Part shown: positions 25,778 to 52,943 of the stretch, in pieces
Layout: each line of letters begins with the position of its first letter
How positions within the stretch are numbered: the first letter of the stretch is position 1
Assembly (NCBI GenBank): GCA_963809485.1
Contig: CAWEJX010000001.1
Coordinates: forward strand, 32,001 to 96,000
Source of the DNA: an uncultured Acidobacteriota bacterium
GTDB lineage: Bacteria > Acidobacteriota > UBA6911
Direction: 5' to 3'
DNA length: 64,000 bases
Made by a program: the position numbers and the translations under genes
Notes under the pieces: model-generated
What the model saw: the letters and a program-made list of their open reading frames with translations, nothing else
What the model was told of the DNA's origin: nothing
Databases searched by the model: none

Positions 25778-26221
25778 TCAAATTTTGTAGCCTTTGCCCC
25801 CGGCTTTTTCGAAAATGGACTCGAGTTCCTCGATCAAGTCCGGTGCACTGCGGAAGCCCATAATGCGGTCCACTTCCTCTCCGGATGAATCGAGAATTAT
25901 GATAGTGGGATATCCATCGACATTGAACCCATTCACCAGGCGGTCTCCCTGGGAATCCGTGTCCGTAAACACTCTTACGAACACCTGCTTGCGGGAAAGT
26001 TCGATAAATTTCTGATCGGAATAGACCTCACGGGTCATTCTTCGGCAGTGCGGTCACCAGCTTGCAGACAAGTCCAGCACGATGAACTTCTTTTCCCTCT
26101 CCGCCTGCTTCAATGCGGCATTGAAGTCTTTTACCCAGGCAACCTGTGCAAGTGAGACTACGGGAGAAATAAGAAAAGCTGCCAAAACGATGCCGGGAAA
26201 AAATGCTTTTCGATAAGTCAT
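25778..26221 (-). CDS. Exported thioredoxin-fold selenoprotein, UxxC motif (in-frame UGA at 26054-26056)
   Basis: Manual translation: MTYRKAFFPGIVLAAFLISPVVSLA-QVAWVKDFNAALKQAEREKKFIVLDLSASW-U-PHCRRMTREVY...GYPTIIILDSSGEEVDRIMGF; UGA sits at the first Cys of WCxxC; 147 aa. Confidence 0.88.
26019..26040 (-). promoter_or_regulatory. Putative bacterial SECIS hairpin
   Basis: mRNA GAAUGACC-CGUGA-GGUCUAUUC; the loop begins about 22 nt after the UGA with GU at loop positions 2-3, matching the bacterial SECIS pattern. Confidence 0.7.
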
Positions 26222-33546: not shown

Positions 33547-33711
33547 TATCGCGGGAATATTCCAAGCTGCAGGTGAACCTGAATTTCCGGCAGGGATTGG
33601 CAGCAGAGCCCGGGACATGTCAGGATGGCTCGGCAGCGCCATCTCCACATGTTCGCCGGGAAATCCTGTTGAACGAAACGTATGGGAGCATCCCAAAACA
33701 GAGGTGAAATT

Positions 33712-36700
33712 ATGAATACCCGACGGCTTGCACTATTGTTTGCGCTGATCTTTGGCACCGCCGCACATTCACTTTTCGCCCAGCAGGCAGGAAGGATACA
33801 GAGTTTCTCTCCGCAGGGAGTCGCTAAAAAAATCCGGCAGGTGCGTGTGATGTTTTCCGAACCCATGGTCTCCTTCGGAGATCCCCGCGCCGGGCTGAAT
33901 CCCTTCGACATCCGCTGCACAGAGAAAGGAACAGGCCGGTGGGCAGATCCGCTGAACTGGACTTACGACTTTGAGAGGGACCTCCCAGCCGGCATTCGCT
34001 GTGAATTCATCTTCAAAAAGGACTTCCAAACTCTTGCCGGCAATTCAGTCGCAGGACAAAGCATGTTCTGGTTCTCCAGCGGCGGCCCGGCCGTTACCCG
34101 ATCCTTTCCGCGCGAAGGATCGGAAGCCATCAATGAAGACCAGATTTTCGTTCTTGAACTCGACGGCGAAGCCACCGAGCGCTCCCTGCTTTCAAGCGTC
34201 CGTTTCTCGATCGGAGGGATCTCTGAGCTGGTGGGAATGCGCATCGTAACGGGACAGGAGAAGGAAGCGATACTGCAATCTCAGTACCCCACCCGCTATC
34301 GCGGGAAGCGTCCGGATCACCTGCTGCTGATTCAGGCCAAACAGAGATTTCCGGCAGGATCGAAGGTAAGCCTGGTATGGGGAAAAGGGGTCTCTTCCCC
34401 CAGCGGCATCGCCACGGATCAGGACCAGATTCTTTCCTTTAAGACTCAACAGCCTTTCACGGCGAGCTTTCACTGCCGGAGGGAAAATGCCGCAGCCGGT
34501 TGCATCCCGATTACGGATATGTGGCTCTCATTCTCTGCCGCCGTGCCCTGGAAGACGGCTAAAAGGGCCGTTCTGACGGGTCCGGGAGGCAAAGTCTGGA
34601 CTCCCGAAACCCGGCAAGGCGATTCTCAGGAAGAGGACGACGATGTCTGGCAAATCGGATTCCGCGGGCCTTTCCCGGAAAACTCCTCCTTTGTTCTGCA
34701 ACTGCCCTCGCCGCTGGAAGATGATGCGGGACGCAAGCTCTCAAACGCGGGAAGCTTCCCCCTGGAGTTGCGGACCGATGAATACCCGCCGCTGGCCAAG
34801 TTTGCCGCGGATTTTGGAATACTGGAGCTCAAGGCCGGCGCAGCGCTGCCGGTCACTCTTCGAAATATCGAGCCCGAAATTGCCGCAAGAAGCTTCCAGG
34901 TTGAAGGGGGCGACGAGAATTTTGATCCGCTACCGCCCAGGCCCTCCGAGGAGGATCTGGATGCCGATTTGAAGGGCAAGGTCCTCAAAGTCCCTCCCGA
35001 CAAAGCCAGCCAGATGCTCGCCTGGATACGCAAGGCCTCCAATAGAAGGTGGGAGGGCCGTGACCGGTCCATATTCGGTTCCGTTACGCAGCCCAAAACG
35101 AAAACCTTCACCCTGCCCAAGCTACACGGGAGCAAGCCCTTTGAAGTTCTAGGGATCCCGCTCAAGGAACCGGGGTTTTATGTGGTGGAGATTGAAAGCG
35201 AAATCCTGGGCGCTTCCCTGCTTGGCATCTCCAAGCCGATGTTCGTTCCGACAACCGTCCTGGTGACGGACCTTTCCGTCCATTTCAAGTGGGGGGCGGA
35301 ATCTTCCCTGATCTGGGTTACGACGCTCGACAAAGCTGTGCCGGTGAAGCAGGCAGCATTGCAGGTTTGTGACTGCGAAGGAAAAATCCTCTGGAAAGGG
35401 ACCAGCGACGGCAATGGCCTCGCCCGCGTGGGCGCATTGCCCAGAGAAGGCGATCTGCCCTATTGCTCCTACAGCGCATACGGCCGCGGATTGTTTGTCA
35501 CCGCCCAATCGGGTAACGACTTTTCCTTCACACACAGCAACTGGAACGACGGAATAGAAAGCTGGAGGTTCCGGCTCCCGACAGAATGGACACCCAATTT
35601 CACCGCAGCCCATACGGTTATGGACCGCAGCCTGTTGCGTGCCGGGGAAATCATTCACATGAAGCATATTCTGCGCGGCGAAGTTTTGGCAGGATTGGCC
35701 CTGAAATCCATCGAACAGGCGCCGCGGACGCTGATCATCCGGCATCTGGGCAGCGAACAAAAATATGAGTTCTCTCTGAAATGGGACGCAAGCGGGATTG
35801 CTGAGACGGATTGGAGCATTCCACGCGAAGCGCGTCTCGGTCAATACAACCTGTACCTGAGGACTGCGGCGGATAAAAACAGGCAGAGCCGGTATGAGTA
35901 TATCGACGAGCCGGATGGCCTTCAATACACGGGATCCTTCAGAGTCGAGGAATTCCGCGTGCCGCTGATGCGCGCATTGATCCGGCCCCCCGCAACCCCG
36001 CTGATAAGCCCCTCTGCGGTGCCCGTAGATATGACGGTGAGCTATCTGAGCGGCGGCAGCGCGGGGAATCTCCCCGTCCGGTTTCGTTATGACGTGCGCA
36101 CACGGTATGTGTCCGGTTTCCCTGATTTCAGTGGCTACATTTTTTCCAACGGGAGCGTGAAGGAGGGCGTTTTCCGCAGCGATTCCGAGGAGGAAACTCC
36201 CGGTGAGGCTCCCGTGCTGAAGAGCAGGGATCTGACTCTGGACAAATCGGGATCCGCAAGGACCGAAATCGAAGGATTGCCTCCAGCCGGCAGGCCTATG
36301 GAAATACTGGCGGAGCTCGAGTTCAGAGACCCTAACGGAGAGATTCAAACCGCTTCCTCCAAAATCCCCCTGTGGCCGGCGGACAGGCTGATCGGCATCC
36401 AGCCTGATGTCTGGATGCAATCCCGGGACGCGTTTCAATTCCAGGTCGCCGTGCTTGATCTTCAGGGCAGGCCCCTGGCCGGCATTGCTGTAAAGGTCGA
36501 TGCGTTCCGAAAAAAAACATTTTCCCACCGGAAGAGGCTTGTAGGCGGGTTTTATGCCTTCGAGCATTTCACCGAAACCAGACTGCTGGGACCGATCTGT
36601 GAAGGCAAAACCGATAAGCAGGGGATTCTCCTCTGCGCCAAGGCGCCGGCAGCCTCCGGGCAAATAGTCCTGCAGGCCTCCGCGCCCGACAGCGCCGGAC

Positions 36701-39411
36701 GGCAAAGCACAGCCTACACATCCATGTGGATTGCGGGCGAGGATGAATGGTGGTTCGAGGCGAGGGATGACGACCGCATCGACCTACTGCCTGAAAGGAA
36801 ACGCTACGAGCCCGGCCAAAAGGCAAAGCTCCAGGTACGGATGCCGTTCCGCAAAGCCACTGCGCTCATCACCGTCGAACGGGAAGGAGTCGGAGAAGCT
36901 TTCGTTAGGGAGCTTTCCGGAAAGCAGCCGGTCATCGAGATCCCGGTGAAAAGCAGCTACGCGCCCAATGTTTTCGTTTCCGTGCTGGTGATACGCGGGC
37001 GGGCAGGCGGGATTCAACCAACGGCAACGGTGGACCTGGGGCGGCCCGCATATAAACTGGGGATTGCCGAACTCAATGTGGGATGGAAAGCGCACGAGCT
37101 GAAGGTCAAGGTCTCGACCGATCGCCAGATCTACAGAGCTCGCGAAAAAGCAAAGGTGCAGGTTTCCGTAACAACGCCGGAAGGCGCCCCTCCGCCGAAG
37201 GGAACCGAGGTTGCGCTGGCAGCCGTGGATGAGGGGTTGCTCGAGCTTGCCCCCAACAGCAGCTGGGATCTCCTGGATGTCATGATGGGAAGGCGAAGCT
37301 ACAACGTTCGCACCGCCACGGCTCAAATGCACGTAATCGGCAAAAGGCACTTCGGCCTCAAAGCTCTGCCCCAGGGCGGAGGCGGCGGAGGACAGATGAC
37401 GCGGGAGCTGTTTGACACCCTGCTCATCTGGAAGGCCCGCGTCCCGCTCGATGAAAAAGGGAGCGCCTGGATTGATGTTCCGATCAACGATTCCATCACA
37501 GGATTCCGCATAGTCGCCGTAGCGTCAAGCCTCGACCGCTTCGGGACGGGAACAGCGTCGATTCGGTCGACGCGCGACCTGGTCATCTTTTCCGGCATTT
37601 CTCCCGTGGTGCGGCAGGGCGACACATTTCGCTCGACATTCACGCTGCGTAACACTGCGGAAAAGGCGATGCAGGTAAAAGTCTCTGCAAGTGTCAGCGG
37701 GATTTCCGAAGCGGTTGCACCGCAGTCGATAGCGCTCAATCCGGGAGAGTCCCGGGATATTTCCTGGAATTTCACGGCGCCGGCCGGAATCGACTCCCTG
37801 AAATATTCCGTTGAAGCGAATGCCGGAGAAGGGATCCGCGACCGCATATCCGTCAGCCAGAAGGTTCTGCCTGCTGTTCCGATCCAGACTTTGCAGGCAA
37901 CGCTTACGCAGCTGGCGGGTGACTACAGATTGGAATTGGAGCGTCCCAAAGACGCCGTTCCGGGAATGGGCAGCATAGACGTTTCTCTGACACCCACCCT
38001 CGTCGGGGGCTTGACGGGGATCGAGGATTATATGAACAGGTATCCCTATACCTGTCTTGAACAGAATGTATCCAAGGCCATCGCCCTTCGGGATTCCGGC
38101 CTTTGGAACAGGATCGTGGCCAACATGCCTGCATATATGGATTCCAGCGGGTTGCTGAAGTATTTCCCGCGCATGAGCCTCGGCAGCGAAATTTTAACCG
38201 CATACGTATTGTCCATCTCCGATGAGGCGGGATGGACTATCCCTCTCGAACTGAAAGAAAGGATGATCCAGGGGTTGCGCGACTTCATCGAGGGCAGGAT
38301 CCTTCGCCGCTCAGCACTGCCGACGGCGGATTTATCCATACGGAAAATTATGTGCATCGAGGCGCTCTCAAGATCCGGCCAGGCTGAGCCGGCGATGCTC
38401 ACCTCAATCACGATCGAGCCAAACCTCTGGCCGACATCGGCTGTTCTGGATTGGTACGGCATCCTGAAGAGAATTGCCAAAATTCGGGACCGGGAGGCCC
38501 GTATGAGCGAAGCCGAACAGATCCTGCGAACACGGCTGAACTTTCAAGGCACAACCATGAATTTTTCCACCGAACGGACAGATCGGCTTTGGTGGCTGAT
38601 GATGTCGCCGGATGCGAATGCCGTTCGTCTGCTCTTGAGCGTAATGGACGCCTCCGGCTGGAAAGCCGACATCTCGAGAATTGTCCGCGGCGCGCTTGCC
38701 CGGCAGCACAGGGGGCGTTGGGATACAACGGTCGCAAACGCCTGGGGTGTACTGGCTGTGGGAAAATTTGCCAAATCCTTCGAAAAAACCCCTGTCTCGG
38801 GGAGCAGCACGGCGTCGCTGGAGGGCAGCACCCGCACGCTGGACTGGGCTGCCTCTCCGGGCGGCAAAACCCTGTCCTTCCCGTGGCCTTCCGGGAAGGC
38901 CGCTCTGGCGCTCCAGATGACCGGAACCGGCCGGCCGTGGGCGACCGTGCGCGGCAACGCTGCGATGCCGCGTAAAGAACCTTTTTCAAGCGGATACAAA
39001 ATTAGAAAAACTCTGACGGCAATTGAGCAGAAGGAACGCGGGAAGTGGAGCAGAGGCGACATCGTGCGGGTCACGCTGAACCTGGAGGCTCAGGCCGACA
39101 TGACCTGGGTGGTCGCGGAGGACCCGATACCCGCAGGATCCACAATCCTGGGAACCGGGCTGGGCCGCGATTCGGGAATTGCCGTCAAGGGCGAGAAACA
39201 AACGGGATGGGTCTGGCCTGCATTCGAGGAGCGTTCCTTCGAGGCTTTCCGCGCCTACTACGAATACGTGCCGAAAGGATCCTGGTCGGTCGAATACACG
39301 ATTCGCCTCAACAATGAAGGGGTCATGAACCTGCCGCCGACAAGAGTCGAAGCGATGTACTCCCCGGAGATGTTCGGCGAGCTGCCCAATGAGGCGATGC
39401 GGATCCAATGA
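33712..39411 (+). CDS. Bacterial alpha-2-macroglobulin
   Basis: About 1900 aa, type I signal peptide, FRVEEFR, AAVDEGLL, thioester motif YPYTCLEQ, C-terminal VEAMYSPE; followed by pbpC. Confidence 0.95.
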   Translation: MNTRRLALLFALIFGTAAHSLFAQQAGRIQSFSPQGVAKKIRQVRVMFSEPMVSFGDPRAGLNPFDIRCTEKGTGRWADPLNWTYDFERDLPAGIRCEFIFKKDFQTLAGNSVAGQSMFWFSSGGPAVTRSFPREGSEAINEDQIFVLELDGEATERSLLSSVRFSIGGISELVGMRIVTGQEKEAILQSQYPTRYRGKRPDHLLLIQAKQRFPAGSKVSLVWGKGVSSPSGIATDQDQILSFKTQQPFTASFHCRRENAAAGCIPITDMWLSFSAAVPWKTAKRAVLTGPGGKVWTPETRQGDSQEEDDDVWQIGFRGPFPENSSFVLQLPSPLEDDAGRKLSNAGSFPLELRTDEYPPLAKFAADFGILELKAGAALPVTLRNIEPEIAARSFQVEGGDENFDPLPPRPSEEDLDADLKGKVLKVPPDKASQMLAWIRKASNRRWEGRDRSIFGSVTQPKTKTFTLPKLHGSKPFEVLGIPLKEPGFYVVEIESEILGASLLGISKPMFVPTTVLVTDLSVHFKWGAESSLIWVTTLDKAVPVKQAALQVCDCEGKILWKGTSDGNGLARVGALPREGDLPYCSYSAYGRGLFVTAQSGNDFSFTHSNWNDGIESWRFRLPTEWTPNFTAAHTVMDRSLLRAGEIIHMKHILRGEVLAGLALKSIEQAPRTLIIRHLGSEQKYEFSLKWDASGIAETDWSIPREARLGQYNLYLRTAADKNRQSRYEYIDEPDGLQYTGSFRVEEFRVPLMRALIRPPATPLISPSAVPVDMTVSYLSGGSAGNLPVRFRYDVRTRYVSGFPDFSGYIFSNGSVKEGVFRSDSEEETPGEAPVLKSRDLTLDKSGSARTEIEGLPPAGRPMEILAELEFRDPNGEIQTASSKIPLWPADRLIGIQPDVWMQSRDAFQFQVAVLDLQGRPLAGIAVKVDAFRKKTFSHRKRLVGGFYAFEHFTETRLLGPICEGKTDKQGILLCAKAPAASGQIVLQASAPDSAGRQSTAYTSMWIAGEDEWWFEARDDDRIDLLPERKRYEPGQKAKLQVRMPFRKATALITVEREGVGEAFVRELSGKQPVIEIPVKSSYAPNVFVSVLVIRGRAGGIQPTATVDLGRPAYKLGIAELNVGWKAHELKVKVSTDRQIYRAREKAKVQVSVTTPEGAPPPKGTEVALAAVDEGLLELAPNSSWDLLDVMMGRRSYNVRTATAQMHVIGKRHFGLKALPQGGGGGGQMTRELFDTLLIWKARVPLDEKGSAWIDVPINDSITGFRIVAVASSLDRFGTGTASIRSTRDLVIFSGISPVVRQGDTFRSTFTLRNTAEKAMQVKVSASVSGISEAVAPQSIALNPGESRDISWNFTAPAGIDSLKYSVEANAGEGIRDRISVSQKVLPAVPIQTLQATLTQLAGDYRLELERPKDAVPGMGSIDVSLTPTLVGGLTGIEDYMNRYPYTCLEQNVSKAIALRDSGLWNRIVANMPAYMDSSGLLKYFPRMSLGSEILTAYVLSISDEAGWTIPLELKERMIQGLRDFIEGRILRRSALPTADLSIRKIMCIEALSRSGQAEPAMLTSITIEPNLWPTSAVLDWYGILKRIAKIRDREARMSEAEQILRTRLNFQGTTMNFSTERTDRLWWLMMSPDANAVRLLLSVMDASGWKADISRIVRGALARQHRGRWDTTVANAWGVLAVGKFAKSFEKTPVSGSSTASLEGSTRTLDWAASPGGKTLSFPWPSGKAALALQMTGTGRPWATVRGNAAMPRKEPFSSGYKIRKTLTAIEQKERGKWSRGDIVRVTLNLEAQADMTWVVAEDPIPAGSTILGTGLGRDSGIAVKGEKQTGWVWPAFEERSFEAFRAYYEYVPKGSWSVEYTIRLNNEGVMNLPPTRVEAMYSPEMFGELPNEAMRIQ

Positions 39412-41586
39412 GAACAGCGAAAAAACGGATCTATTGGTTCATCTACCTTTACCTTGCCGCATTCACGCTTTTTGTGGCTGCCTGCCTGGTATACCTTTTT
39501 GCTTTTCAGCCGCTGTCCGGGAATTCCCGTCCTATGAACAGGTCCGCAGCTCCCACATCCAATCCGAAGGGAACTCTGCTGGACCGCAATGGCGAGATTA
39601 TTCACGAAATGAGAATAGACAAGCGCGGGCGGCGGCTGAATTGGATTCCCGCTGAGCAGGATCTCGCCTGCCATGCAATCGGCGATCGTAGCCGCCGAAG
39701 ATCACCGGTTCTACAGGCACGGAGGGGTGGACTGGATTTCCTTCTGCGCGGCCTTCCCGGCGGTGTTTCGTTCTTCCAGGGGGGGTGGGGCCAGCACCCT
39801 GACGATGCAGCTGGCGGCCCGGCTTGACGAGGAATTGAAGCCGGAAAAAGGCCGCCGGTCGCTGCTGCAGAAATCCAGGCAGATACGGGCTGCGCGGACC
39901 CTGGAAAGCTCCTGGTCCAAGGCCCAGATTTTGGAGTGCTACCTGAACCTCGTCACCTTTCGCGGCGAACTCCAGGGCATTGCCGCGGCCGCCCGAGGAT
40001 TGTTCTCTAAAGAGCCTCAAGGACTGAATGACGTGGAGTCGATGATTCTTGCCGCGCTGGTGCGTTCGCCCAATGCAGGGATAGGCGCCGTTGCCGCGAG
40101 GGTGGACAGGCTTGCGCGAGCAATGGACTCGACCGCCGGCAGGGCAGAAATTGAGGCGGCCGTGGAATCGGCGCTTTCCCGCCCCTACAATCTGCGGCCA
40201 AAGATAGCCCTGGCTCCACATGTTGCGCAGCGGCTTTTCCAGGCCCGCGAAACTGGCGGCGGGCGCGGCAGCATCCTCCTTTCATGTACGCTGGATGGCC
40301 GGCTGCAGGCCTTCGCCGCCGAGGCTTTACGCCGACATGTTCTGTCCGCAAAATCGCTAAACATGAACGACGGTGCTGTGCTAGTGGCGGAAAACGAGTC
40401 GGGAGATATTCTTGCCTACGTCGGGAACACCGGGGATCAGGCCAGCGCTCGTTTCGTGGACGGCGTCCTTGCACTCAGGCAGGCCGGTTCGACGCTGAAG
40501 CCTTTCCTATATGCTCTGGACTTCGAGCAGCGCCTGCTCACTCCGGCCTCGCTGATAGATGACAGTCCCACAGATATACCAGTCCAGGGAGGAACCTACA
40601 GGCCCAGGAACTATGACAGCCGATTCCACGGCAGCGTGACTGCAAGAGTCGCGCTGGCATCTTCGCTCAATGTGCCTGCCGTCAAAGCCCTGAATCTTGC
40701 GGGGGTGGATTCGTTCGTGGATATTTTGAAGTCGCTGGGCTTCCGAGGCATACAGACTTCCGAGTTTTACGGTCCATCGCTTGCGCTCGGAGCCGCAGAC
40801 GTAACATTGTGGGATCTCGTGGATGCCTACCGGACCCTGGCGAACAGTGGGGTCTGGAGTCCTCTTAGCCTGACGGCCGATAAGGCGGAATCGCAGCGCA
40901 GGCAGGTTTTTTCGGCGGAATCGGCATTTCTGATATCGGACATTCTCTCGGACCGCGAGAGCCGCAGCCGGACATTCGCACTGGAAAGTCCTCTGTCGAC
41001 CCGCTTCTGGACAGCGGTGAAGACCGGGACCAGCAAGGACATGAGGGACAATTGGTGCGTGGGTTTTTCCGAGCATTACACAGTGGGAGTCTGGACAGGC
41101 AATTTTTCAGGCGAATCCATGTGGGATGTAAGCGGGATCACCGGAGCCGCGCCCGTCTGGGTTGAGATTATGAACCGTCTCCATGAAAGTCAAAGCAGTC
41201 TCAAGCCCCATGCGCCCGCCGGAATCGTGCAGCACAATGTGGATTTTGCGGCCGGCACCGATTTAAAACGGGAGTGGTTTATAAAGGGAACCGAAACGGA
41301 AGCAATCCGGCCGGCGGCCGGCGCACTGGTTTCGAGGATTGCCTATCCGACCGCAGGCACCGTTATCGCTCTGGACCCGGATATTCCTCAGGACGCGCAG
41401 CAAATGTTCTTTGAAGCCTCGCCCAGGGGAAGCAATCTCGAATGGATGCTGGACGGCCGGAGACTGGGCTCAGCCTCAGCCCTGACTCCATGGCGTCCCC
41501 GGAGAGGCAAGCATATTTTGAAGCTGGTGGATAGCGCTTTGAATGAATTGGATTCGGTTGACTTTGAGGTCCGGGGAAATTATTAG
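39408..41586 (+). CDS. pbpC: Penicillin-binding protein 1C (apparent frameshifts at 39510-39655)
   Basis: Pieces in three frames: TM helix, PSYEQVRSSHIQSEG, TLLDRNG..RRLNWIP, then AEDHRF, GASTLTMQLA, GSTLKP, SLN, KTGT; downstream of alpha-2-macroglobulin. Confidence 0.9.
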
Positions 41587-42498: not shown

Positions 42499-42801
42499 GT
42501 GGGCACACGAAACTTTTTTCTGCAAGGGATTTGGGAGATAGAGGGTAAGCGGAAGGTGCACACATTTGGAGCGCTTGAAGAGCTTTGCAATGCGACAGGC
42601 AAGGAATGCAACGGGATACTGGTGGATTACGACATGTTTCAGAACGTAAGAAAGGCGGACCTGTCGGACTTTGCAGGAATCTATAAGGCCGATGAACTGG
42701 ATTTCCGGCTTAAACCCGATGCTGTGGCAGTTGACAAAGGATGCATCCTTCACAACATTAACGATGGCTTTACAGGGCGGGCCCCGATCTTGGCGCCATA
42801 A
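42499..42801 (+). CDS. Hypothetical protein
   Basis: 100-aa ORF with AGGAG RBS and GTG start directly after the previous gene; no recognised motif. Confidence 0.45.
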   Translation: MGTRNFFLQGIWEIEGKRKVHTFGALEELCNATGKECNGILVDYDMFQNVRKADLSDFAGIYKADELDFRLKPDAVAVDKGCILHNINDGFTGRAPILAP

Positions 42802-42906
42802 AGGTTGGTGGGCCTATGCCTCATTACAGACCCCGTCCGGGATCAGCCTGGATAACCGCGGATCTACATGGATTGACAACCCATGTAAATCCGCGGTTAG
42901 TGTTGG

Positions 42907-44613
42907 TTAATACTTCACATAGGTAGGAATAAGGTTTTTGTACTTTGCAGCCAACTCCTTCCAGTTTTTCGGCAGTTGGATTTTTTTGCTGACGAAATCA
43001 TTGCCCAGAATCCCTCCGCCAGCACTCTTGAACACCCCATACCAGGTTCCGGCACCGCCCGCGACCACGATCATTAAGGCGTCTCGGGAAGTATTAAGGG
43101 ATGCGGCAGCGGCATTATCCCCTTTCGGTCGGGACTTGGCGGAACCTGCCTCTCCGGGTTTCATCAGATATTCCCTTACCTTCGACTTGGTCCATCCTTC
43201 ACTCGCCAGAATGTCTGCATGGGTTGGGATTATCATCAGGGCATTCATAATGCCTGGACTCGAGCCGGCAATCGAATCGAGAATTCCTTTTGCATCCGTG
43301 CCGCGCGGTATGGAATAGACGTGCTGGTTCGGGAAAAACATGGTTACGGTGCTGTCTTCCTTTTTGAATCCCCGTTCGACGTGCAAGGGTTCCCATGGGC
43401 TGTCTTCCTCGTTCTCGGCGAGAACCAGCGAGTATTTGCCCGGATTCCCCAGCGTTCCCATATCTTCGATACCCTTCCTGGCCCCGCCGATATTCTTGAC
43501 AATCAGCCCCAAGGCCCTTCCTATTGCCGAGTTGGACAGATTCCCCGGACTGAGAACGCCGGAACCGGAATTGATATGGATATCCTTTCTTATGGGGCCG
43601 TTGACGACCAGGAAAGGAGCCCATGATCCTGTGCTCACTTCAAAGGTATCGAATCGGGCTTTCGGATCGGACACAGTCTCCACCGCCGCGATCAGAACCG
43701 GCATATGAATGGGCAGGGCTCCTGCCATGACGGCGTTCACCGCAATCTTCTCCACGGTAGCCTTGCCCATCCGCGGGATGATTTTAGCCACAACATGGTC
43801 TGCCGGAAGATCCGTTCCCTTCATCATCTCGGCCACGGCTTCCTCGGATGGCGGAATAACCGGCAATCCGTCTCCCCAGCCTTGGCGGTAGAAAAATTGA
43901 TTCACTTCCGTCAGATTGCCTTTAAACACAATTCTGGGTGCGTTTTCGATCTTCAATTGCGGAGATTTTTCCTGCTCCGTCAGGGGTCTGGTCAAGGCCG
44001 CCACAATATCATCAAATACCTTATCGATGCCCGACTTGATGTCCTCGGCAACAGTAGATTCACACGTAATCGGTTCTCCCAGAACTCTAAGATTTGGCAT
44101 AGCCTTGCTGGACGCCGCAGAATGGGCGTCGTCCACGAAACCGCGATTCGCCAGTAACACGACCGGCGTTCCAAAGTCCTCAATCTCTACACTGTTGTAG
44201 GTGAGGAACTTTGTGCAGCCCCCTCAATCCCCAACCGCCGTAATAACGGCGTCCATTTCTTTGGCCCAGGCGGCATACTTTTCCTTGTTTTCCGCAAGAT
44301 ACTTCTGAGAGGGAGCCTCAAAATAGCTGGTTTGACAATCGGGAAACCTTTCCTTGAGTTTCTTTTCAATATAGGCCTGTATCGGTCTTGCGGCGCGCTT
44401 CATGTTGTAGAATAATCCGATCTTCTTGCCGGCCAGAGAATCGACTCTCGGTGAAATTCCGCGGGGAGGGATGGGATCCACTTCTGCCCACGGGCTTAAG
44501 ACTTCATATTGCCATTCCGAGGCATCCTTGGCAAAAGTAGCCTCCGAAGGAACGTGAATGGCCATAGAGGCAAAAAAACCCATGGCCGCAATAAACAAAA
44601 TATTTCTCATCAT
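42907..44613 (-). CDS. UGSC-family selenoprotein (UGGC motif) fused to a 'DGLPxxPP' domain, with signal peptide; in-frame UGA at 44224-44226
   Basis: ORFs 44224-44613 and 42907-44160 are in one frame separated only by TGA: AVITAVGD-U-GGCTKFLTYNSVEIEDFGTPVVLLANRGF; 568 aa in total; AGGAGGAG RBS. Confidence 0.85.
44173..44212 (-). promoter_or_regulatory. Putative SECIS hairpin 11 nt downstream of the UGA
   Basis: mRNA AAAGU(U)CCUCA..CUACA-ACAG-UGUAG..UGAGGACUUU forms a long stem-loop; the loop G position is less canonical than at 26019. Confidence 0.6.
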
Positions 44614-44804
44614 CGACTCCTCCTTAAATTCCCAATGGGATTCCTTATTATTGCTGCCATCTTTGACCTGCGATCCAACCTATCCTATAAGGGTGCCGAT
44701 AGATATCTGAGATAATCCGTTAGGAGAGTTTTATTTTCAAGCTTTATGTGGAACACCGATCAGCGAGGCGCAAGACCGGAAATTTTCATAAAAGATTAAC
44801 CAAG

Positions 44805-45481: not shown

Positions 45482-46906
45482 TGGACACCCATCTATTTGT
45501 CTATTTTTTTGGGCACATTCCATGGGTTCACCATTAGATGTATTGAAAGGAGTGAACCATGACTATGCCGCGAAGCAAATATGTCCAGGAAGGACAAGAT
45601 GGCGTCTATCACTGCTTCAGCCGCTGCGTCCGCCGGGCGTTTCTATATGGATTCGATGCAAACACCGGCCGCGACTTCTCCCATCGCAAAGCATGGCTGG
45701 TCGACAGGTTACGGTTTCTCTCCGCCATTTTTGCCATCGATGTCTGTGCTTTCGCCGTCATGCAAAACCACTTCCACGTCATTCTTCGTATCTGCCTCGA
45801 AATCGCCGCCGCCTGGTCCGATCGCGAGGTGGCCACCCGCTGGCTTACCCTCTTCCCTATACGGCACGCACCCCCTTCCGAAGCCCAGATCTGCGCCCTG
45901 GCCGATTGCCCCGAACGCATCGCCGTATTGCGCAAACGACTCTGCAGCCTCAGCTGGTTTATGGGCCGACTCAACGAATTCATCGCCCGAGCCGCCAATA
46001 AAGAAGATAACGTCAAGGGCCGATTCTGGGAATCCCGATTCAAATGTCAGGCCCTGCTCGACGAGGCTGCCATTGCTGCCTGCATGGTTTATGTGGATCT
46101 GAATCCCATCCGTGCCGGCCTGGCCCCAACTCCCGAAGAAAGCGACTTCACCAGCATTCAGGAACGGATTCGCGCCTGGCAGAATCAAATGACCAGCAAA
46201 GCTTTGATAACCAGCGCGTTAACTCAGCACAACCCGGACCGGTCTTCGGTAGAGAACATGCCAATGTCGGAAGATAAAACGGGTATTCCCGATTCAATTA
46301 CCGAAGCTATCCCTGTAGGTTCTCTCGACTCCCCATCCCTTTGGCTGTGTCCCATTCAATCAGATACCCACCGTCGCGGCATCCTGCAGATGACTGAAGC
46401 CGATTACTTCAATCTGGTAGACCAGTCGGGGCGCCTATTGCGGGCTGACAAACGCGGAGCCATTGATCCCCAACTCGCACCCATTCTGCTGCGCATTGGC
46501 GCCAGTCCACAAGCCTGGATAGATACCATTTCCCATTTCGGCCCGAAATTCCGTCTGGCGGCAGGCTTAATTTCCAGTCTGCGTGATTTTGCGGATCAGC
46601 TCGGCCGAAGGTGGCTCGTTGGCATATCCGCAGCTCGAACTGCCTTTGCATCTACATCGCCGCAGTCGGCCTGAGCCATGTTGCTCTGCCAGATTCCCTC
46701 CACCTATCCGACTGTCGCTCCTTAGCCTTGCAGATCGCCTCCAGCAATCCTTGACCTTCAGCTCGCCGGCCACTGCCAAGCTGCCCTCATCGATTTGCTG
46801 TATTCGCGGGTGCCTATTGATTGCCTACTGATAGCAAATGAAACCAAAAACAAATGATTTGGGTATCGATCTGCTTTATTTGCTGCCTACAAACAGTAGG
46901 TGTCCA
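45482..46906 (+). mobile_element. RAYT-like Y1 transposase unit bounded by imperfect inverted motifs
   Basis: Left TGGACACCCATCTATTTGT (45482-45500); right 46889-46906, reverse complement TGGACACCTACTGTTTGT; no target-site duplication. Confidence 0.7.
45559..46674 (+). CDS. HUH/Y1 tyrosine transposase (IS200-like, REP-associated RAYT type)
   Basis: YHCFSRCVRRAFL, HUH motif MQNHFHV, GRFWESRFK, catalytic YVDLNP.RAG, SDFTSI. Confidence 0.92.
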   Translation: MTMPRSKYVQEGQDGVYHCFSRCVRRAFLYGFDANTGRDFSHRKAWLVDRLRFLSAIFAIDVCAFAVMQNHFHVILRICLEIAAAWSDREVATRWLTLFPIRHAPPSEAQICALADCPERIAVLRKRLCSLSWFMGRLNEFIARAANKEDNVKGRFWESRFKCQALLDEAAIAACMVYVDLNPIRAGLAPTPEESDFTSIQERIRAWQNQMTSKALITSALTQHNPDRSSVENMPMSEDKTGIPDSITEAIPVGSLDSPSLWLCPIQSDTHRRGILQMTEADYFNLVDQSGRLLRADKRGAIDPQLAPILLRIGASPQAWIDTISHFGPKFRLAAGLISSLRDFADQLGRRWLVGISAARTAFASTSPQSA

Positions 46907-47167: not shown

Positions 47168-48235
47168 CTAATCCGGCAACTTAAGTTTCCTCCAACTGCA
47201 CCCGTGATCCGAAGAGCAGTAAAGATCTTTGCCGTTAGCAACGGCAAAAAGATACCTTCCATCAATGGGATCCACGCCAATGCTCTGGATCCCGTTGACC
47301 TTGTCATTAGCCAATGGCAGTAGTCGAAATGTCTGGCCTGCATCAGATGACCGATACAGGCCCTTGGAACTAAGCACATAAATTATGGCTGGATCTTCAG
47401 GATCCGTCTCGATTTGCTCTAATTCTACCGGATACCCCTTATCTTCACTGTTCCTTCTCCACGAACGCAGTTGCTGAAATTTGTCCGCAAAAAGGGGAGA
47501 AAATATGTCCGCAAAAAGAGGGGAAAATATTTCTCGGCTGCTCTCCAACAGTCTCCTGCTCTTGCTTGCATCAACGGAGGCCAAGAGTCCATCTGAGATT
47601 AAATACAAGATATCTGGATTTGCGCGGCATTCAACTAAATATCGGTAATCATCATACAAAGGTCTGAAAGTCTTTCCATAGTTATCAGAAATATACGTTC
47701 CATGCTCTCCGACAGCTGTCGCCTCGGCATATATTCTTCCTGGATTCTGCATGCCTGTTCCGATTATCGACAAGCTTCCAAGATGCCTGCCCTTAATTGT
47801 CCTGGGATGAACAAGGCTCCAGGAACGTCCCTCATCCCGACTCACCTCTATATCAGCCCTATGCTGACTCTTGACCGCGGGGCGATACACTGTCTGAGGA
47901 TCGACATTGCTAACAAAGCATCCTCCGGCAGCACTTGCAGTTGAGGATTGATGACATCTAAATAGATCTTTTGCCAGATGCCACGTATTGCCTCTGTCCG
48001 TAGACGAATAAACCTGCATGTCACTGGAAATAGCTATTCTGGATACAGCACCGCGCTGCTGAATACTAAGTATATTGACGCGGATACGAAAATGATCCGA
48101 TGTTTCCATACCCGCTGAAAGAACTCTTTGAATGCGCGGATCATCGCCGCATAAATCTCTCTCTAAGGGGAAAGCTAGCGGTAATGAACCCCCAAAGATA
48201 AGTATACATGAAATGGCAATTTCAGCCGGTTTCAT
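47168..48235 (-). CDS. Exported Asp-box (BNR) beta-propeller protein, putative immunity protein
   Basis: Signal peptide; Asp-boxes STDRGNTW, SRDEGRSW, SDNYGKTF, SSDAGQTF, SSDHGCSW; starts 3 nt after the rhs stop; low GC like the toxin tip. Confidence 0.8.
   Translation of the reverse strand: MKPAEIAISCILIFGGSLPLAFPLERDLCGDDPRIQRVLSAGMETSDHFRIRVNILSIQQRGAVSRIAISSDMQVYSSTDRGNTWHLAKDLFRCHQSSTASAAGGCFVSNVDPQTVYRPAVKSQHRADIEVSRDEGRSWSLVHPRTIKGRHLGSLSIIGTGMQNPGRIYAEATAVGEHGTYISDNYGKTFRPLYDDYRYLVECRANPDILYLISDGLLASVDASKSRRLLESSREIFSPLFADIFSPLFADKFQQLRSWRRNSEDKGYPVELEQIETDPEDPAIIYVLSSKGLYRSSDAGQTFRLLPLANDKVNGIQSIGVDPIDGRYLFAVANGKDLYCSSDHGCSWRKLKLPD
47482..47529. repeat. 24-bp in-frame tandem duplication (IFSPLFAD x2)
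   Basis: tgtccgcaaaaaggggagaaaata / tgtccgcaaaaagaggggaaaata. Confidence 0.9.
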
Positions 48236-48238
48236 TGG

Positions 48239-51200
48239 TCACCACCTACAGTGTTTCTTCAGTTCTATATGATAAAAATAACTGGCTTCAGCTTTATCCT
48301 CTCCTTTGTATCCTGTGGCTTTGGCCAATTGAAGGTCGCTATAGGTTCCCCTAAACCAGACCCATTGGTTGGCTTTGTGGCTGATTTCGTGAATTACCGT
48401 TTGAGCTTGCTCTTCTGGCGACGCGTTTGGATCAAAGAACTCCTCATAAAAGTAAACAAATTTGCTTGAAAAAGTTTCCGCAACAGCTCCTTGTCCTGAC
48501 CGATACAATGGGACCAATACGAGGTTACCAGGTTCTAACAATTTATACAGATTGGCGGCGCTTCGGTTCGCTCTGTTTACAGCCGCTTCGCTAATAACTC
48601 CGCTTCGTCCAATCTCAATCGTGAAGAAGACATTTTTTAGCCACGATATACAGCCTGGATAGTTAAGCATTGCTTTTGCATTAGTCACTGCAAATCCAAG
48701 AATTTCATCACGAGTAGGAGGCTGGGGGGTTTGCCGTCCTGGTCCTATTCCCATCCATCCCGTATAGAGCCACATCGCCACTGCAGCATTCATTGCTTGC
48801 GCCGGATCATGGGAAAAGGGCACCGAACTGTTGCCAATAGAAATCAAACCCGACGAGAATGGATCAAGTGCATAATAAATGGAATAGGGCACCTCTAGCC
48901 TTCCATCCGGGTCCACAAGATTGATGGGATCGTTTCTGACGTAGGCGTATTTGTTGAGGCATTTTGGTTCGCAGACATTTGAGGTCACCGGATCGGGAGA
49001 GGCCCATCGCGACATTATCGAGCTGTACGACCTTGCCAGATTGAAGTGCAACCCGCTCTCCGGGTCGTCCTTGTGCCCCGCAAACTGGTCGTTCCCTCCC
49101 GGACTGAACGGCTGGCCATACATCGACGTCAGCCCCGAACTGATCGTGTAGCTCGCCATATCAATCACCTGGTTCAGATGACCGCGCCGCAGATACTCCG
49201 TCGTGGTCGCGCCGCCCCCCGTAACCGTCCGCCTCGCTACCGCCTGACTGCCGTTCACTATATAGTCCGTCCGCGCATTGTTCGATCCCGATGGCGTCGT
49301 CTCCGTCCGGTAGTCCGCCATCAACTCATTCCCGGCTCCATATATCGAGATTATGTTTCCCGATACCGTGCCCGACTGGATCTGATACGTATAAGTCTTC
49401 TTCACCCGCCGCCCCAGAGCATCATACCGGTAGACTCCCCAATCCGTCCCCGTGACCGATGTCATCCTCCCCGCTCCGTCCCAGGCATAGCTCCTCGCCC
49501 CTTCCGCCAGCAGGTTGCCTGTCGCATCATATGCCGTCGTTACCGCATCCTGACCGTCCGTATAGCCGCTCAGCCGGTTGTTCGAGGCATTCACGTCATA
49601 CGTAATCTGTGAGTCCTGCCCCGGATTGCCCGGATACTGCAGCTGGTTCGTCAGCATGTTGCCGAATTGATCGTAGCTGAAGCTGTTCACCTGATCCGTC
49701 ACATAATTATTGTTGGCATCCCGGACTGCATGCGTCGCAGATACCAGCCGCCCCACCTTATCGTAGGCATACGTGTATTGAGCCACCGCATTGACGATCT
49801 GTTCCCGAATGCTGCTGATCTGCGAGCTGCCGTTGTAATATAGATTCCAGTAGATCGTCCTCTGCGGGCTGCTCCGCACCATGCTATACAGATTCAGCCT
49901 TCCCACAGCGTCATACGTGTATTCCTGACGGATATTGTCCCCGAACGAGATTTTCGAAAGAGCTCCATCTTGCGACTCATAGCTGTAGCCGGCGTGCGTG
50001 ATGGTTCCCGTATTGTTCTTGATCGTCTTCGTCCGGCACATCGCATCCCTGGTGTACCGGATGTCCAGCCCCGCAGGATACGTGATCTGCCACAGGTTGC
50101 TCTCCGAGCAGGATCCTATGAAATTATAACTGTACCCCACCGGATACTGAATCCCATCGATGCTCGCCACCTGCTGCGTCACACGCCCCCCTGCCTCGTA
50201 GCTCCAGCTGTACCCGATCCCGTCCGATGTCCAGGCGCTCGTCATCCGCCCCTTGCCGTTGGTGATCGTCCCGATCAGCCCCGAGGTCGCTTGATCATAA
50301 TAATAACTCGCCGACGGCGTCCCGTCCGAAAAACTCGTGCTCGTCCGCCGGTTCAACACATCATAGGTCGATGCCGCCACAACCCCACGCGCATCCGTCC
50401 GGCTCAAAACATTCCCGTTATCGTCATACGTGTAGGTCGTCGCGCCCTTCTCCGGGTGCGTTTCCGCAGTCAGACGGCCCAGGCTGTCATAGGTGAACGT
50501 CCTGGTCTGGTCCGGCAGGTTGCCCTGTCCGATCTGAACTATCTGAGTCAGCTTCCCCAGAACATTATAGCTGTAGGTCGTCACTATGCTCAGGTTCCCG
50601 GCCGCATCCTGCTCGGTGACCTGCGAGATGTTTCCCAATTCGTCGTAGGTGTACTTTTTCTTCTTGTTCTCAGGATTCGTCACCGTAACCGTATTCCCTA
50701 CATAGAGATACGATGTAGTACCTACCGATGGCACCGCCTCCGTCAATACCCGCCCCAGCGGATCGTACGTGTAGGTGGCGTTTGTGGGCGTTCCCCCGTC
50801 ACGATACGGAAACGAGACCGAGCTTGCCTGCTGCCAGGGATTGTTGTAGCCCATCGTGGTAAGAATATCATCCTCTGCTTCAGGGTCTTCCTGCCTGGTC
50901 TTGATCACCTCGCTCGAGGAATCCACCGTCGCATATTGCGTCCCCGAGGACGACATTTCCGTGGTCGTTAAATTGAAATACTCATCAAAATCGTCATAGC
51001 AATAGTTCGTTAGCCCGATGGGTGTGTTTATCTGGGTCGTTCGGCCCAACTCGTCGTACCAGTAGTATACCGTGGCGCCGTTGGCATCGATGGCGGTTGC
51101 CAGGTCCCCGTTGTAGTAATTAAACCCGCTCGGAATACTGCTTCCACGTCTGCTCGCTCTGCTGCCCCAGCGCATTGGTCGTGTAGCGCGGCAGCGTGTA

Positions 51201-52943
51201 GTTCGTCGAACTCGTGAACGTCCGCGTCGTCGTATTGCTTTTCGCATCCGTCTCCGACACCACGTTCCCTGTCATGTCGTACCCGGATGTCGTCGTCAGA
51301 AACCGGCTCTCCCCGATCAGCTTACGCCGCACGCTCGTCGGATTGCCCCGCACCGTTATGTTCTGATTGTCGTAAGCAGTGTCATGGTTATAGACCGGCC
51401 CCTGATACAGCGTCAGCTGGTACTCATCGTACCCATACTCCGTTCGCGCCACCTCCGTGCCGCTTCCATCCTTGACCGAAACCGCAGCCGGCAGGTTCGT
51501 CATGTTTGCTGCCGTATAGGCGGAGTTGCTTTCATGCCGGTAGGTCGTCGTCGCTCGTCTGAGCACCACCGTGTTGCCGTACTTGTACTGGACCGTCTGG
51601 CTGATATTGCCCGTGCCGTCGGTGGCATAGATCAGCTCCGTTTTGAGGCTCTGTCCGTCGTCCAGGGTCGTCGTCCTCCGCGTCGGGCGGGGATTCACGA
51701 TATAGCCGGCGCTTATGTCCTGCTCCCAGTCGGTCGTTTGAGTCCGGTACACCGTCGTCTGGCTCAGATTCTTGCGCTGCATGCTCGATATCAGCCCGTC
51801 GGACCACGAGCGGGCCGGGTAGACCGAATAGTTGAAATTATAGTCCGTGATACCGCGAATATCCGTTACGGCCGTCTTGGACGGATTGGATCCGTTGCCG
51901 TTGAACGTATAAGCCAGCGATGTCGTGTAGTATTGCGTGCCGTCCGTGTAATCTTTCCGGCTCGTTACCACCCGTTCCTCCACGCTCGTGTAGACCGGAT
52001 CCGCATACGAGCGCGTGCCAAATGTGAAATCGGCCAGCGTCTTCGTGACACTCTGCCCGTCCTTTTCCACCCGGTTCGTTATGGTCTGGATTTCCCCCAG
52101 ATAGTAGTAGATGTAATTCTGAACAAAATTCCGGTCCGGCAGACTGAACGTGATCGAGTTCAATCTCCGTTCTCCCGAAGGGACCTGCTTGGGCACCGAA
52201 AAAGTGGGTGTAAAGGTTCCCGCAGCGCTGGTGTTGAACGTAATCGTGCCCCGGAACGTTCCATAAGAGGTTATGGTCTCGAGGCAGCCTGTGGTGGCGT
52301 TGTAGGAAAATGCCGCGGCTTTGCCCAGAGTGTCGAATACCTCGTTGAGCTTGCCTGTCCCTGCAACATAAGTGGCCGTAATCCGGTTTCCGTTCGTGTC
52401 CTTCATCTCGGTCATGTAGCTGGTATTGCCTACGGTATTGCCGAATACGAGCCGGATCCCTCCCTTGAGCGTAGCTGTCTTGGACGCAACATCCAGCACA
52501 ATGTAGGTCGAATCGACCGATTTCCACACTCCGTTGTCATGCTGCTGGATCTCATGCGACGAGCCGTCCGGGTCCACAAGGGCATAGCTTGAGGCGCCCT
52601 GAATAAGTCTCGCGAATCCCAGGTACCACCCTATGCCTACCCAGCTCCCGGTATCCTTGACATACATCCCGTTGCCATTCCGGTCCCAGATCTTGCTGTT
52701 GTAATAGATCGACAGATCCAGATTGAAACCGGCCCGGCCAGGTCGCGATACCAGCCGCCGGCCGTAGACCAGGTTGCCGTTGACCAGATTGATCCGGCCT
52801 GTGCCGTCAAGATAGGTTCCGAAGGAATAAACCCCGCGCGCATTCCTCGGTTTGTGGGTCAGCTCCGTTTCCATCAGCGCTGTCCTGGGAAGGACCGGGA
52901 AGCCCAAAAGCGCAATCACGACGAAGAGAATGGACTTTTTCAT
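48239..52943 (-). CDS. Rhs/YD-repeat polymorphic toxin with signal peptide and HExxH C-terminal tip (one +1 frameshift near 51120-51130)
   Basis: ORFs 51120-52943 and 48239-51247 join into about 1567 aa; YD repeats (YTYDPLGRV, YDSLGRL); core end YAYVRNDPINLVDPDG; tip QAQTVIHEISHKAN. Confidence 0.92.

Follow-up and report, generated by a model that had tools for sequence, protein, structure and literature searches.

A gene on the minus strand at positions 42907 to 44613 very probably encodes a selenoprotein that annotation has broken in two. The gene lies in a 64,000-nucleotide stretch of the genome of an uncultured Acidobacteriota bacterium (contig CAWEJX010000001.1, positions 32,001 to 96,000), here called the window, to which coordinates given without a contig refer. 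Its product would be a long-form member of the UGSC family with a genuine selenocysteine (Sec, U), in which the UGSC domain is joined to a large domain that has no name. Our best explanation taken whole, mechanism included, is that the protein is an exported long-form UGSC reductase driven by a selenol/thiol pair, and we give it a probability of about 0.5.

Two neighboring open reading frames (ORFs) are almost certainly one gene. Under translation table 11, the minus strand carries an ORF of 129 amino acids that starts with ATG (44224 to 44613) and, in the same frame, an ORF of 417 amino acids that starts with GTG (42907 to 44160). When the TGA between them (44224 to 44226) is read as Sec, a single frame of 568 codons plus a stop results, in which U130 is the sole nonstandard step, and a strong Shine-Dalgarno-like AAGGAGG (44619 to 44625, minus strand) stands 5 nucleotides (nt) upstream of the ATG. 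Residue U130 sits in the context AVGD-U-GGC-TKF, with Cys133 (44215 to 44217) as its likely resolving partner. The original prediction, made from the sequence, had described one 568-residue frame interrupted by a TGA alone; the translation confirms that description, and the merged protein contains every string it quoted, namely, the MMRNILFIAAMGFFASMAIHVPSEATFA N terminus, GWGDGLPVIPP, ATVEKIAVNAVMAG, and AENEEDSPW.

Decoding of the UGA as Sec is supported by orthologues. A search for related loci returned 24, in metagenome-assembled genomes (MAGs) labeled Acidobacteriota, Desulfobacteraceae, Desulfatiglandales, Dehalococcoidales/Chloroflexi, and others. TGA occupies the aligned codon in all 23 orthologous loci (50 to 93% identity), with the two halves of the gene conserved in the same frame on either side; the 24th locus (L069, 28% identity) fell outside the motif filter and was left out of the codon count. 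Uninterrupted homologues also exist (e.g., P0122 and P0123, 49% identity), and in an alignment of 34 sequences, Cys-bearing relatives run through the site without a break. In a larger alignment of 150 sequences, the Sec column is covered by 82 of 149 homologues: 27 have CxxC, 8 have the first Cys alone, 12 the second alone (AGSC, GGSC, and the like), 13 have a gap, and the rest carry other residues. The 67 homologues that do not cover the column start after residue 130, as expected of fragments split at a TGA. Homologues with Sec or Cys at position 130 were thus found, which answers the objection, raised in the original prediction against itself, that relatives might lack both.

The genome also contains the machinery that Sec insertion requires, another point on which the original prediction had made its case depend. 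In an assembly of 6.04 Mb in 21 contigs (95.7% complete, 7.3% contamination), we found selA (565 bits), selB (391 bits), selD (345 bits), and a tRNA-Sec (70.6 bits) that ARAGORN calls tRNA-SeC with anticodon tca. Within the window, an Rfam search at the gathering threshold and a tRNA scan gave no match.

A stem-loop resembling a Sec insertion sequence (SECIS) follows the UGA at 44172 to 44213 on the minus strand, and pairing begins with the 11th nucleotide past that codon. The 67 nt that begin at the UGA fold with -22.7 kcal/mol, a stability that 8 of 200 shuffled sequences matched (z = -2.09). Conservation was assessed over the 60 nt that start at the UGA in 23 sequences, the window's own and those of 22 loci (L047 repeats L046 and was omitted). 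The 11-bp lower helix (columns 14 to 25 with 45 to 55) is paired in 93.7% of cells, with two pairs altered on both sides, and pairing fell to 26 to 56% when the 3' partner was slid by one to three columns. Conservation of the SECIS-like helix exceeds chance. Four Chloroflexi sequences disrupt part of the lower helix; separately, we observed that the Chloroflexi/Dehalococcoidales orthologues L063, L064, L065, and L068 keep the TGA and have a different, weaker predicted stem-loop after it. Of the "strong hairpin 11 nt downstream" that had been proposed, the position and the conservation hold, and the strength does not if judged by energy alone. The features by which bacterial selenoproteins are recognized, an in-frame UGA, a downstream stem-loop, selA, selB, selD, and tRNA-Sec, are all found here.

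The N-terminal part of the protein belongs to the UGSC family. Residues 38 to 208 (43990 to 44502, minus strand) match PF24696 at 89.9 bits against a cutoff of 25 (E = 2.8e-25), over profile positions 2 to 171 of 172, and U130-G-G-C133 falls at the family's conserved position after a β-strand. The NCBIfam equivalog NF041046, which models a short stand-alone protein, matches at 77 bits, below its 125-bit cutoff. The UGSC-family redox domain that had been predicted is borne out by these searches, as is its fusion to a large unnamed domain, residues 210 to 568 (42910 to 43986, minus strand). The fusion is not a special event, however, as the long form is common in the family and shared by thousands of relatives. 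Nor is UGGC a distinguishing variant, since the middle pair differs freely from one paralogue to another (GS, GT, ST, DG, SV, and others). We found 5,929 related proteins at an E value of ≤0.001 among 8,000 scored candidates; clustering at 50% identity gave 5,177 clusters at that threshold and 1,100 at an E value of ≤1e-30.

The C-terminal domain is well modeled and without convincing relatives. Pfam and NCBIfam gave no match to residues 210 to 568 in the protein itself or in 34 full-length homologues scanned singly. The long-form motifs GW(T/G)DGLP..PP(T/S), NAVMAG, NGP, IGRA, and AENEE..PW are all present, and the conserved residues are D248, P251, P255, S/T256, T286, N293, M296-A297-G298, N361, R366, E400, and W407. 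An AlphaFold2 model of the whole chain built on 150 sequences has a pLDDT of 90.5 and a pTM of 0.91, so the placement of the two domains relative to each other is confident in the model; residues 1 to 22 are disordered (pLDDT below 50). Modeled alone, the C-terminal domain has a pLDDT of 91.7. Foldseek against the PDB found nothing at an E value of ≤0.001 for the whole model or for this domain alone, whose best match was class I fumarate hydratase (E = 5.6e-3, TM 0.21). VIA-align of the domain against 48,161 chains gave a best Z score of 5.0 over 73 residues, with one chain at a Z score of ≥5, and 5.0 is below the tool's stated typical value even for models without relatives. Encapsulin, RidA, serine dehydratase, and PrpD were considered as relatives and set aside as common substructures (Z ≤ 5.0). 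A profile search of PDB sequences returned chance-level matches only (E of 0.16 or worse), and the ESM Atlas returned the protein's own unnamed clusters and no usable named one. As modeled, the C-terminal domain appears to have a fold without precedent among solved structures. The UGSC domain (residues 59 to 219), by comparison, is modeled as a generic three-layer α/β sandwich of the flavodoxin/Rossmann-like kind: the best Z score is 11.4, 161 chains from many unrelated families reach a Z score of ≥8, and the best 50 structural matches are flavodoxin-, TIR-, receiver-, and Rossmann-like, with no thioredoxin-fold protein among them.

The protein is probably exported, judging from its N terminus. 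Residues 1 to 28 (44530 to 44613, minus strand) comprise a positive n-region (MMR), a hydrophobic core, and a small-x-small site at TFA-KD, with n, h, and c regions recognized by reading the sequence and by a hydrophobic-window heuristic (2.27); the "signal-like peptide" of the original prediction is supported to that extent. Among 20 orthologue N termini, 15 are signal-like, 1 is truncated where its contig ends, and 4 lack a signal and have extensions of only 11 to 13 residues, the last being the same Chloroflexi/Dehalococcoidales proteins, L063, L064, L065, and L068. Most uninterrupted relatives begin near residue 35 without an extension, and a minority carry leaders of the secretory (Sec) or Tat type.

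The gene is one of a large family within its own genome. A protein search of the genome returned 69 matches; phmmer over six-frame segments with TGA read through returned 63 segments, which gave 61 derived proteins of at least 150 residues, and the Pfam UGSC model alone hit 58 places. Forty genes of at least 400 residues have a single in-frame TGA, whose context is G-x-U-x-x-C-like in every case (for example, on contigs C12, 46 to 204 kb, and C4, 82 to 423 kb); the motif is UxxC in 37 of them and UGAAT in three tandem copies. Cys is found at +3 in 34 of 37 Sec paralogues (92%). The tandem trio (C4:341659-348040, 86 to 88% identical) reads SW-U-GAAT, that is, Sec without the usual resolving Cys. 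Sequences after the UGA in the 40 paralogues fold more stably than 373 control windows drawn from those genes (mean of -16.2 versus -12.6 kcal/mol; Mann-Whitney P = 2e-7), and many of these folds have GGU-type apical loops. The Sec paralogues have a median pairwise identity of 32%, and only three pairs reach 90%, which indicates old paralogues rather than assembly duplicates. Signal-like N termini were called by the heuristic in 29 of 37 aligned full-length Sec copies, and 2 more have Tat-like RR motifs. In a sample of relatives, all 18 genomes of the same genus have matches, 10 to 44 each, compared with 2 of the 12 sampled from other families in that class (G028, for one, had none). The genome also contains split forms, in which a stand-alone UGSC gene adjoins a gene for a stand-alone C-terminal domain.

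Paralogues elsewhere in the genome keep particular company. Genes for molybdenum hydroxylase subunits, GltD/XdhB-like flavoproteins, DHDPS-like and FAD_binding_2 proteins, aldehyde:ferredoxin oxidoreductases, coenzyme A (CoA)-transferases, TonB receptors, and a DUF4352-like exported protein recur near them. The last of these, of about 190 residues and weakly DUF4352-like, lies directly downstream of several GH-U-STC-type paralogues (at L034, C12:194464-195078; L035, C4:161056-161622; and four more sites), and four loci of other MAGs show the same arrangement. None of the recurring genes adjoins 42907 to 44613, so we draw no functional link for this gene.

How the protein might work can be proposed in outline. 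UGA-130 would be decoded as Sec with the aid of the stem-loop 11 nt downstream and of SelA, SelB, SelD, and tRNA-Sec, and a cleavable signal peptide would carry the product over the inner membrane. The mature protein would consist of two tightly packed parts, a flavodoxin-like UGSC domain and a domain of 360 residues, with U130-x-x-C133 offered by the former at the start of a helix. The Sec/Cys pair would serve as a two-electron redox center: the selenolate may attack a substrate held by the large domain, and Cys133 may resolve the adduct to give a selenenyl-sulfide, in the manner of selenoprotein B of glycine and D-proline reductases. A flavoprotein resembling thioredoxin reductase (TrxR) may return the oxidized pair to its reduced state in cytoplasmic relatives. 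Because the protein appears exported, the electron source here would have to be a periplasmic thiol relay, perhaps DsbD and a thioredoxin-like carrier, and a DsbD gene is present in the genome.

The reductase part of this proposal has, in our estimate, roughly even odds, and we base it on TrxR-like fusions of the C-terminal domain and on recurring matches to selenoprotein B. The C-terminal domain occurs in 22 long proteins (>630 residues): in 6 it is fused to a TrxR-like flavoprotein, in 1 to an AhpC/TSA thioredoxin-fold domain, and in 1 to an AMP-binding enzyme, and several others match no Pfam family. In P0283, for example, residues 1 to 343 are the domain (42% identical to the window's) and residues 363 to 639 are Pyr_redox_2. 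Two similar proteins of 709 to 741 residues each gave three matching stretches, a sign that they may carry the domain in tandem. When 34 homologues were compared with NCBIfam, the recurring matches other than UGSC were to GrdB (4), PrdB (3), GrdH (3), GrdF (3), and generic selenoprotein B (2), with a best E value of 8.7e-4. The window's own protein matched GrdH with an E value of 0.048 (12.6 bits against a cutoff of 775), and PF07355, the selenoprotein B family, gave no match to it at E values up to 1. A GRDB match elsewhere in the window's genome did not lie on a convincing ORF and was set aside.

Several observations weigh against the reductase proposal. The similarity to GrdB and PrdB is far below every family cutoff, and the GrdE/PrdA pyruvoyl partner (PF09338) had no match in the window's genome, in a search whose control was silent in all 14 genomes. 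No conserved neighbor gene was found across the 23 orthologous loci, and the gene's own neighbors (α-2-macroglobulin, PBP1C, RHS, BNR, and REP-transposase-like) are unrelated to it. Neither Cys nor His is conserved in the C-terminal domain of this subfamily. Of 49 aligned paralogues, 12 lack Cys at position 133 and carry Ser, Ala, Thr, Gly, Met, or Leu in place of U130, yet they keep all the remaining conserved residues of the two domains, among them R56, E145, D248, T256, T286, N361, R366, E400, and W407, so the core role of the large domain may need no redox pair. The original prediction held that the Sec domain serves the large domain catalytically; the fusion stands, and, given these Sec-less copies, the large domain may not strictly need the Sec. 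Export, too, is called from sequence reading and our own hydrophobicity heuristic.

The large domain might instead be a non-redox enzyme or binding module, such as a hydrolase, lyase, isomerase, or solute binder, with UxxC as a redox switch or a dispensable accessory. The 12 paralogues just described fit such a role, as do the conserved residues, which are Asp, Glu, Arg, Asn, and Thr and are not redox residues. Moreover, the genome has some 60 copies, many near TonB-dependent receptors and catabolic oxidoreductases, as in families of substrate-specific binders or hydrolases, and the weak fold matches are to hydro-lyases and cyclic amide hydrolases. Those fold matches are at chance level, however (TM about 0.2; Z ≤ 5.0), and a non-redox role sits poorly with the retention of costly Sec in all 23 orthologues and 40 paralogues and with repeated fusion of the domain to TrxR-like and thioredoxin-fold proteins. 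We consider this explanation unlikely, at perhaps one chance in five. A second option keeps the redox chemistry and makes the protein a periplasmic thiol-disulfide oxidoreductase, isomerase, or peroxidase whose targets are proteins or oxidants; the large domain would then be a docking or chaperone module. Most known bacterial selenoproteins with UxxC or CxxU belong to this class of redox protein (accessible part of a recent review, PMC13188914), the protein looks exported, and one relative of the large domain is fused to AhpC/TSA. The best 50 structural matches of the UGSC domain, however, include no thioredoxin-fold protein, and the Chloroflexi orthologues lack a signal. Some 40 Sec paralogues as diverged as these suggest many small-molecule specificities instead of one housekeeping task, and we regard the thiol-disulfide role as improbable.

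The last alternative denies Sec altogether, with the TGA as a true stop that separates a 129-residue exported peptide from a 417-residue protein with its own start. Gene callers do split nearly all relatives in this way, and the best 120 of the database matches are all fragments of 385 to 465 amino acids (query coverage, 69 to 76%). The GTG at 44160, however, falls within a predicted β-strand of the UGSC domain in the AlphaFold2 model, and no ribosome-binding site was seen in the sequence upstream of it. Moreover, both halves stay in frame around the conserved TGA in 23 loci, Cys relatives are continuous through the site, and the genome has the Sec machinery, with a conserved hairpin after the TGA. 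A true stop is very improbable indeed. The exported selenol/thiol-driven reductase remains the explanation that we prefer.

How the proposed reductase relates to known systems depends on the part considered. Selenoprotein B works by attack of a selenolate on an activated carbon and resolution of the adduct by a thiol, and the chemistry proposed here would be alike. Glycine, sarcosine, betaine, and D-proline reductases are cytoplasmic, whereas the window protein appears exported. A weak, recurrent similarity to GrdB, GrdF, GrdH, and PrdB is centered around Sec, and the UxxC motif is shared (PMC2398784, accessible part), but scores are far below the cutoffs of PF07355, TIGR01917, and TIGR04483, and the partner domain is unrelated in sequence. 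Dithiol systems fed by TrxR, in which electrons pass from NAD(P)H through a TrxR-like protein and a CxxC carrier to a substrate enzyme, are echoed in the 6 TrxR-like fusions among the 22 long forms. No TrxR-like gene adjoins the window copy, however, and an exported copy could not use a cytoplasmic flavoprotein directly.

The gene is a further member of a known, uncharacterized family and not the "undescribed" selenoenzyme first proposed. Surveys of ocean and freshwater selenoproteins found the UGSC-containing protein to be one of the most abundant, with a UxxC motif and no assigned function (PMC2398784, Zhang and Gladyshev 2008, in the part accessible), and a review of 2026 still gives the family, as NF041046, no function (PMC13188914, accessible part). 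Like members of PF24696 and NF041046, the window protein has U-x-x-C at the family position, read as Sec; unlike the stand-alone form, it has roughly four times the length of the 147-position model, with an export signal and an extra domain of 360 residues, and its motif is UGGC instead of UGSC. The part of PMC2398784 available to us guesses at a thioredoxin-like fold, whereas our model is flavodoxin/Rossmann-like. The same source mentions a "UGSC/Unknown_1" fusion (Figure S1A), whose Unknown_1 may or may not be the C-terminal domain described here. No description of a long exported UGSC form or of an expansion of the family was found in the accessible parts of the literature on UGSC, Acidobacteriota, and Methylomirabilota selenoproteins. 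New here are the tally of 40 Sec copies across the genome, the paralogues that lack Sec and keep the conserved core intact, the comparison of signal peptides among orthologues, and the repeatedly negative fold searches.

The surroundings of the gene are mixed. A gene for α-2-macroglobulin (1,909 amino acids), followed by one for a PBP1C-type penicillin-binding protein, occupies 33682 to 41586 on the plus strand, and the two are a familiar periplasmic defense pair. An ORF of 371 amino acids adjoins the gene (45559 to 46674, plus strand) and weakly resembles a REP-associated tyrosine transposase (40.6 bits, below the cutoff), and BNR/sortilin-repeat, RHS-repeat, and DUF6531 proteins are encoded at 47168 to 52943 on the minus strand. 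A second selenoprotein gene (25781 to 26221, minus strand; stop TGA at 25778 to 25780) lies 18 kb away and encodes an exported thioredoxin-like protein of 147 residues with SASW-U-PHC, which resembles the C-terminal domain of DsbD. Orthologues of the UPHC protein that contain Sec occur in 12 of the 18 genomes of the same genus; these genomes are kin, so the co-occurrence says nothing about a partnership with the long-form UGSC protein, which the original prediction had held possible and which is plausible but no more. Elsewhere in the genome, the selD gene (C8:80982-81905, plus strand) has one in-frame TGA, so selenophosphate synthetase is itself a selenoprotein here.

Near-identical DNA occurs in soil and wetland metagenomes, with the stretch or part of it in 20 of the 24 runs listed, from 11 studies. 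Contigs from four RNA libraries (90 to 99% alike) map to both halves of the gene, and DNA carryover is possible. In those four runs, no contig bridged the TGA with at least 31 letters on each side, and the flanks at 42700 to 42841 and 44617 to 44800 had no cover. These contigs are no evidence of translation, transcript ends, or readthrough.

The two ORFs should be merged in annotation, and thousands of relatives have been cut in two by gene callers in the same way. The gene displays the usual shape of the family, a redox module joined to a large unnamed domain without structural relatives. Forty Sec copies of one family, most with export signals, are unusual for bacterial selenoproteins, and the paralogues, Sec-less copies included, together with the TrxR-like-fused relatives, are natural variants from which a substrate might be found. 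We speculate, and hold it doubtful as a whole, that the genus has roughly 30 to 40 exported selenoenzymes built on an unsolved fold and recharged by a relay from DsbD to selenothioredoxins that include the UPHC protein. They would be substrate-specific Sec-Cys reductases that cleave activated C-X bonds of compounds derived from plants or humus outside the cytoplasm, a tentative assignment, with glutathione-independent aryl-ether cleavage as an equally tentative candidate chemistry. With its 40 Sec genes, the family alone would come close to the biggest complete selenoproteomes of bacteria that the accessible part of PMC13188914 cites, which number 57 and 63 genes.

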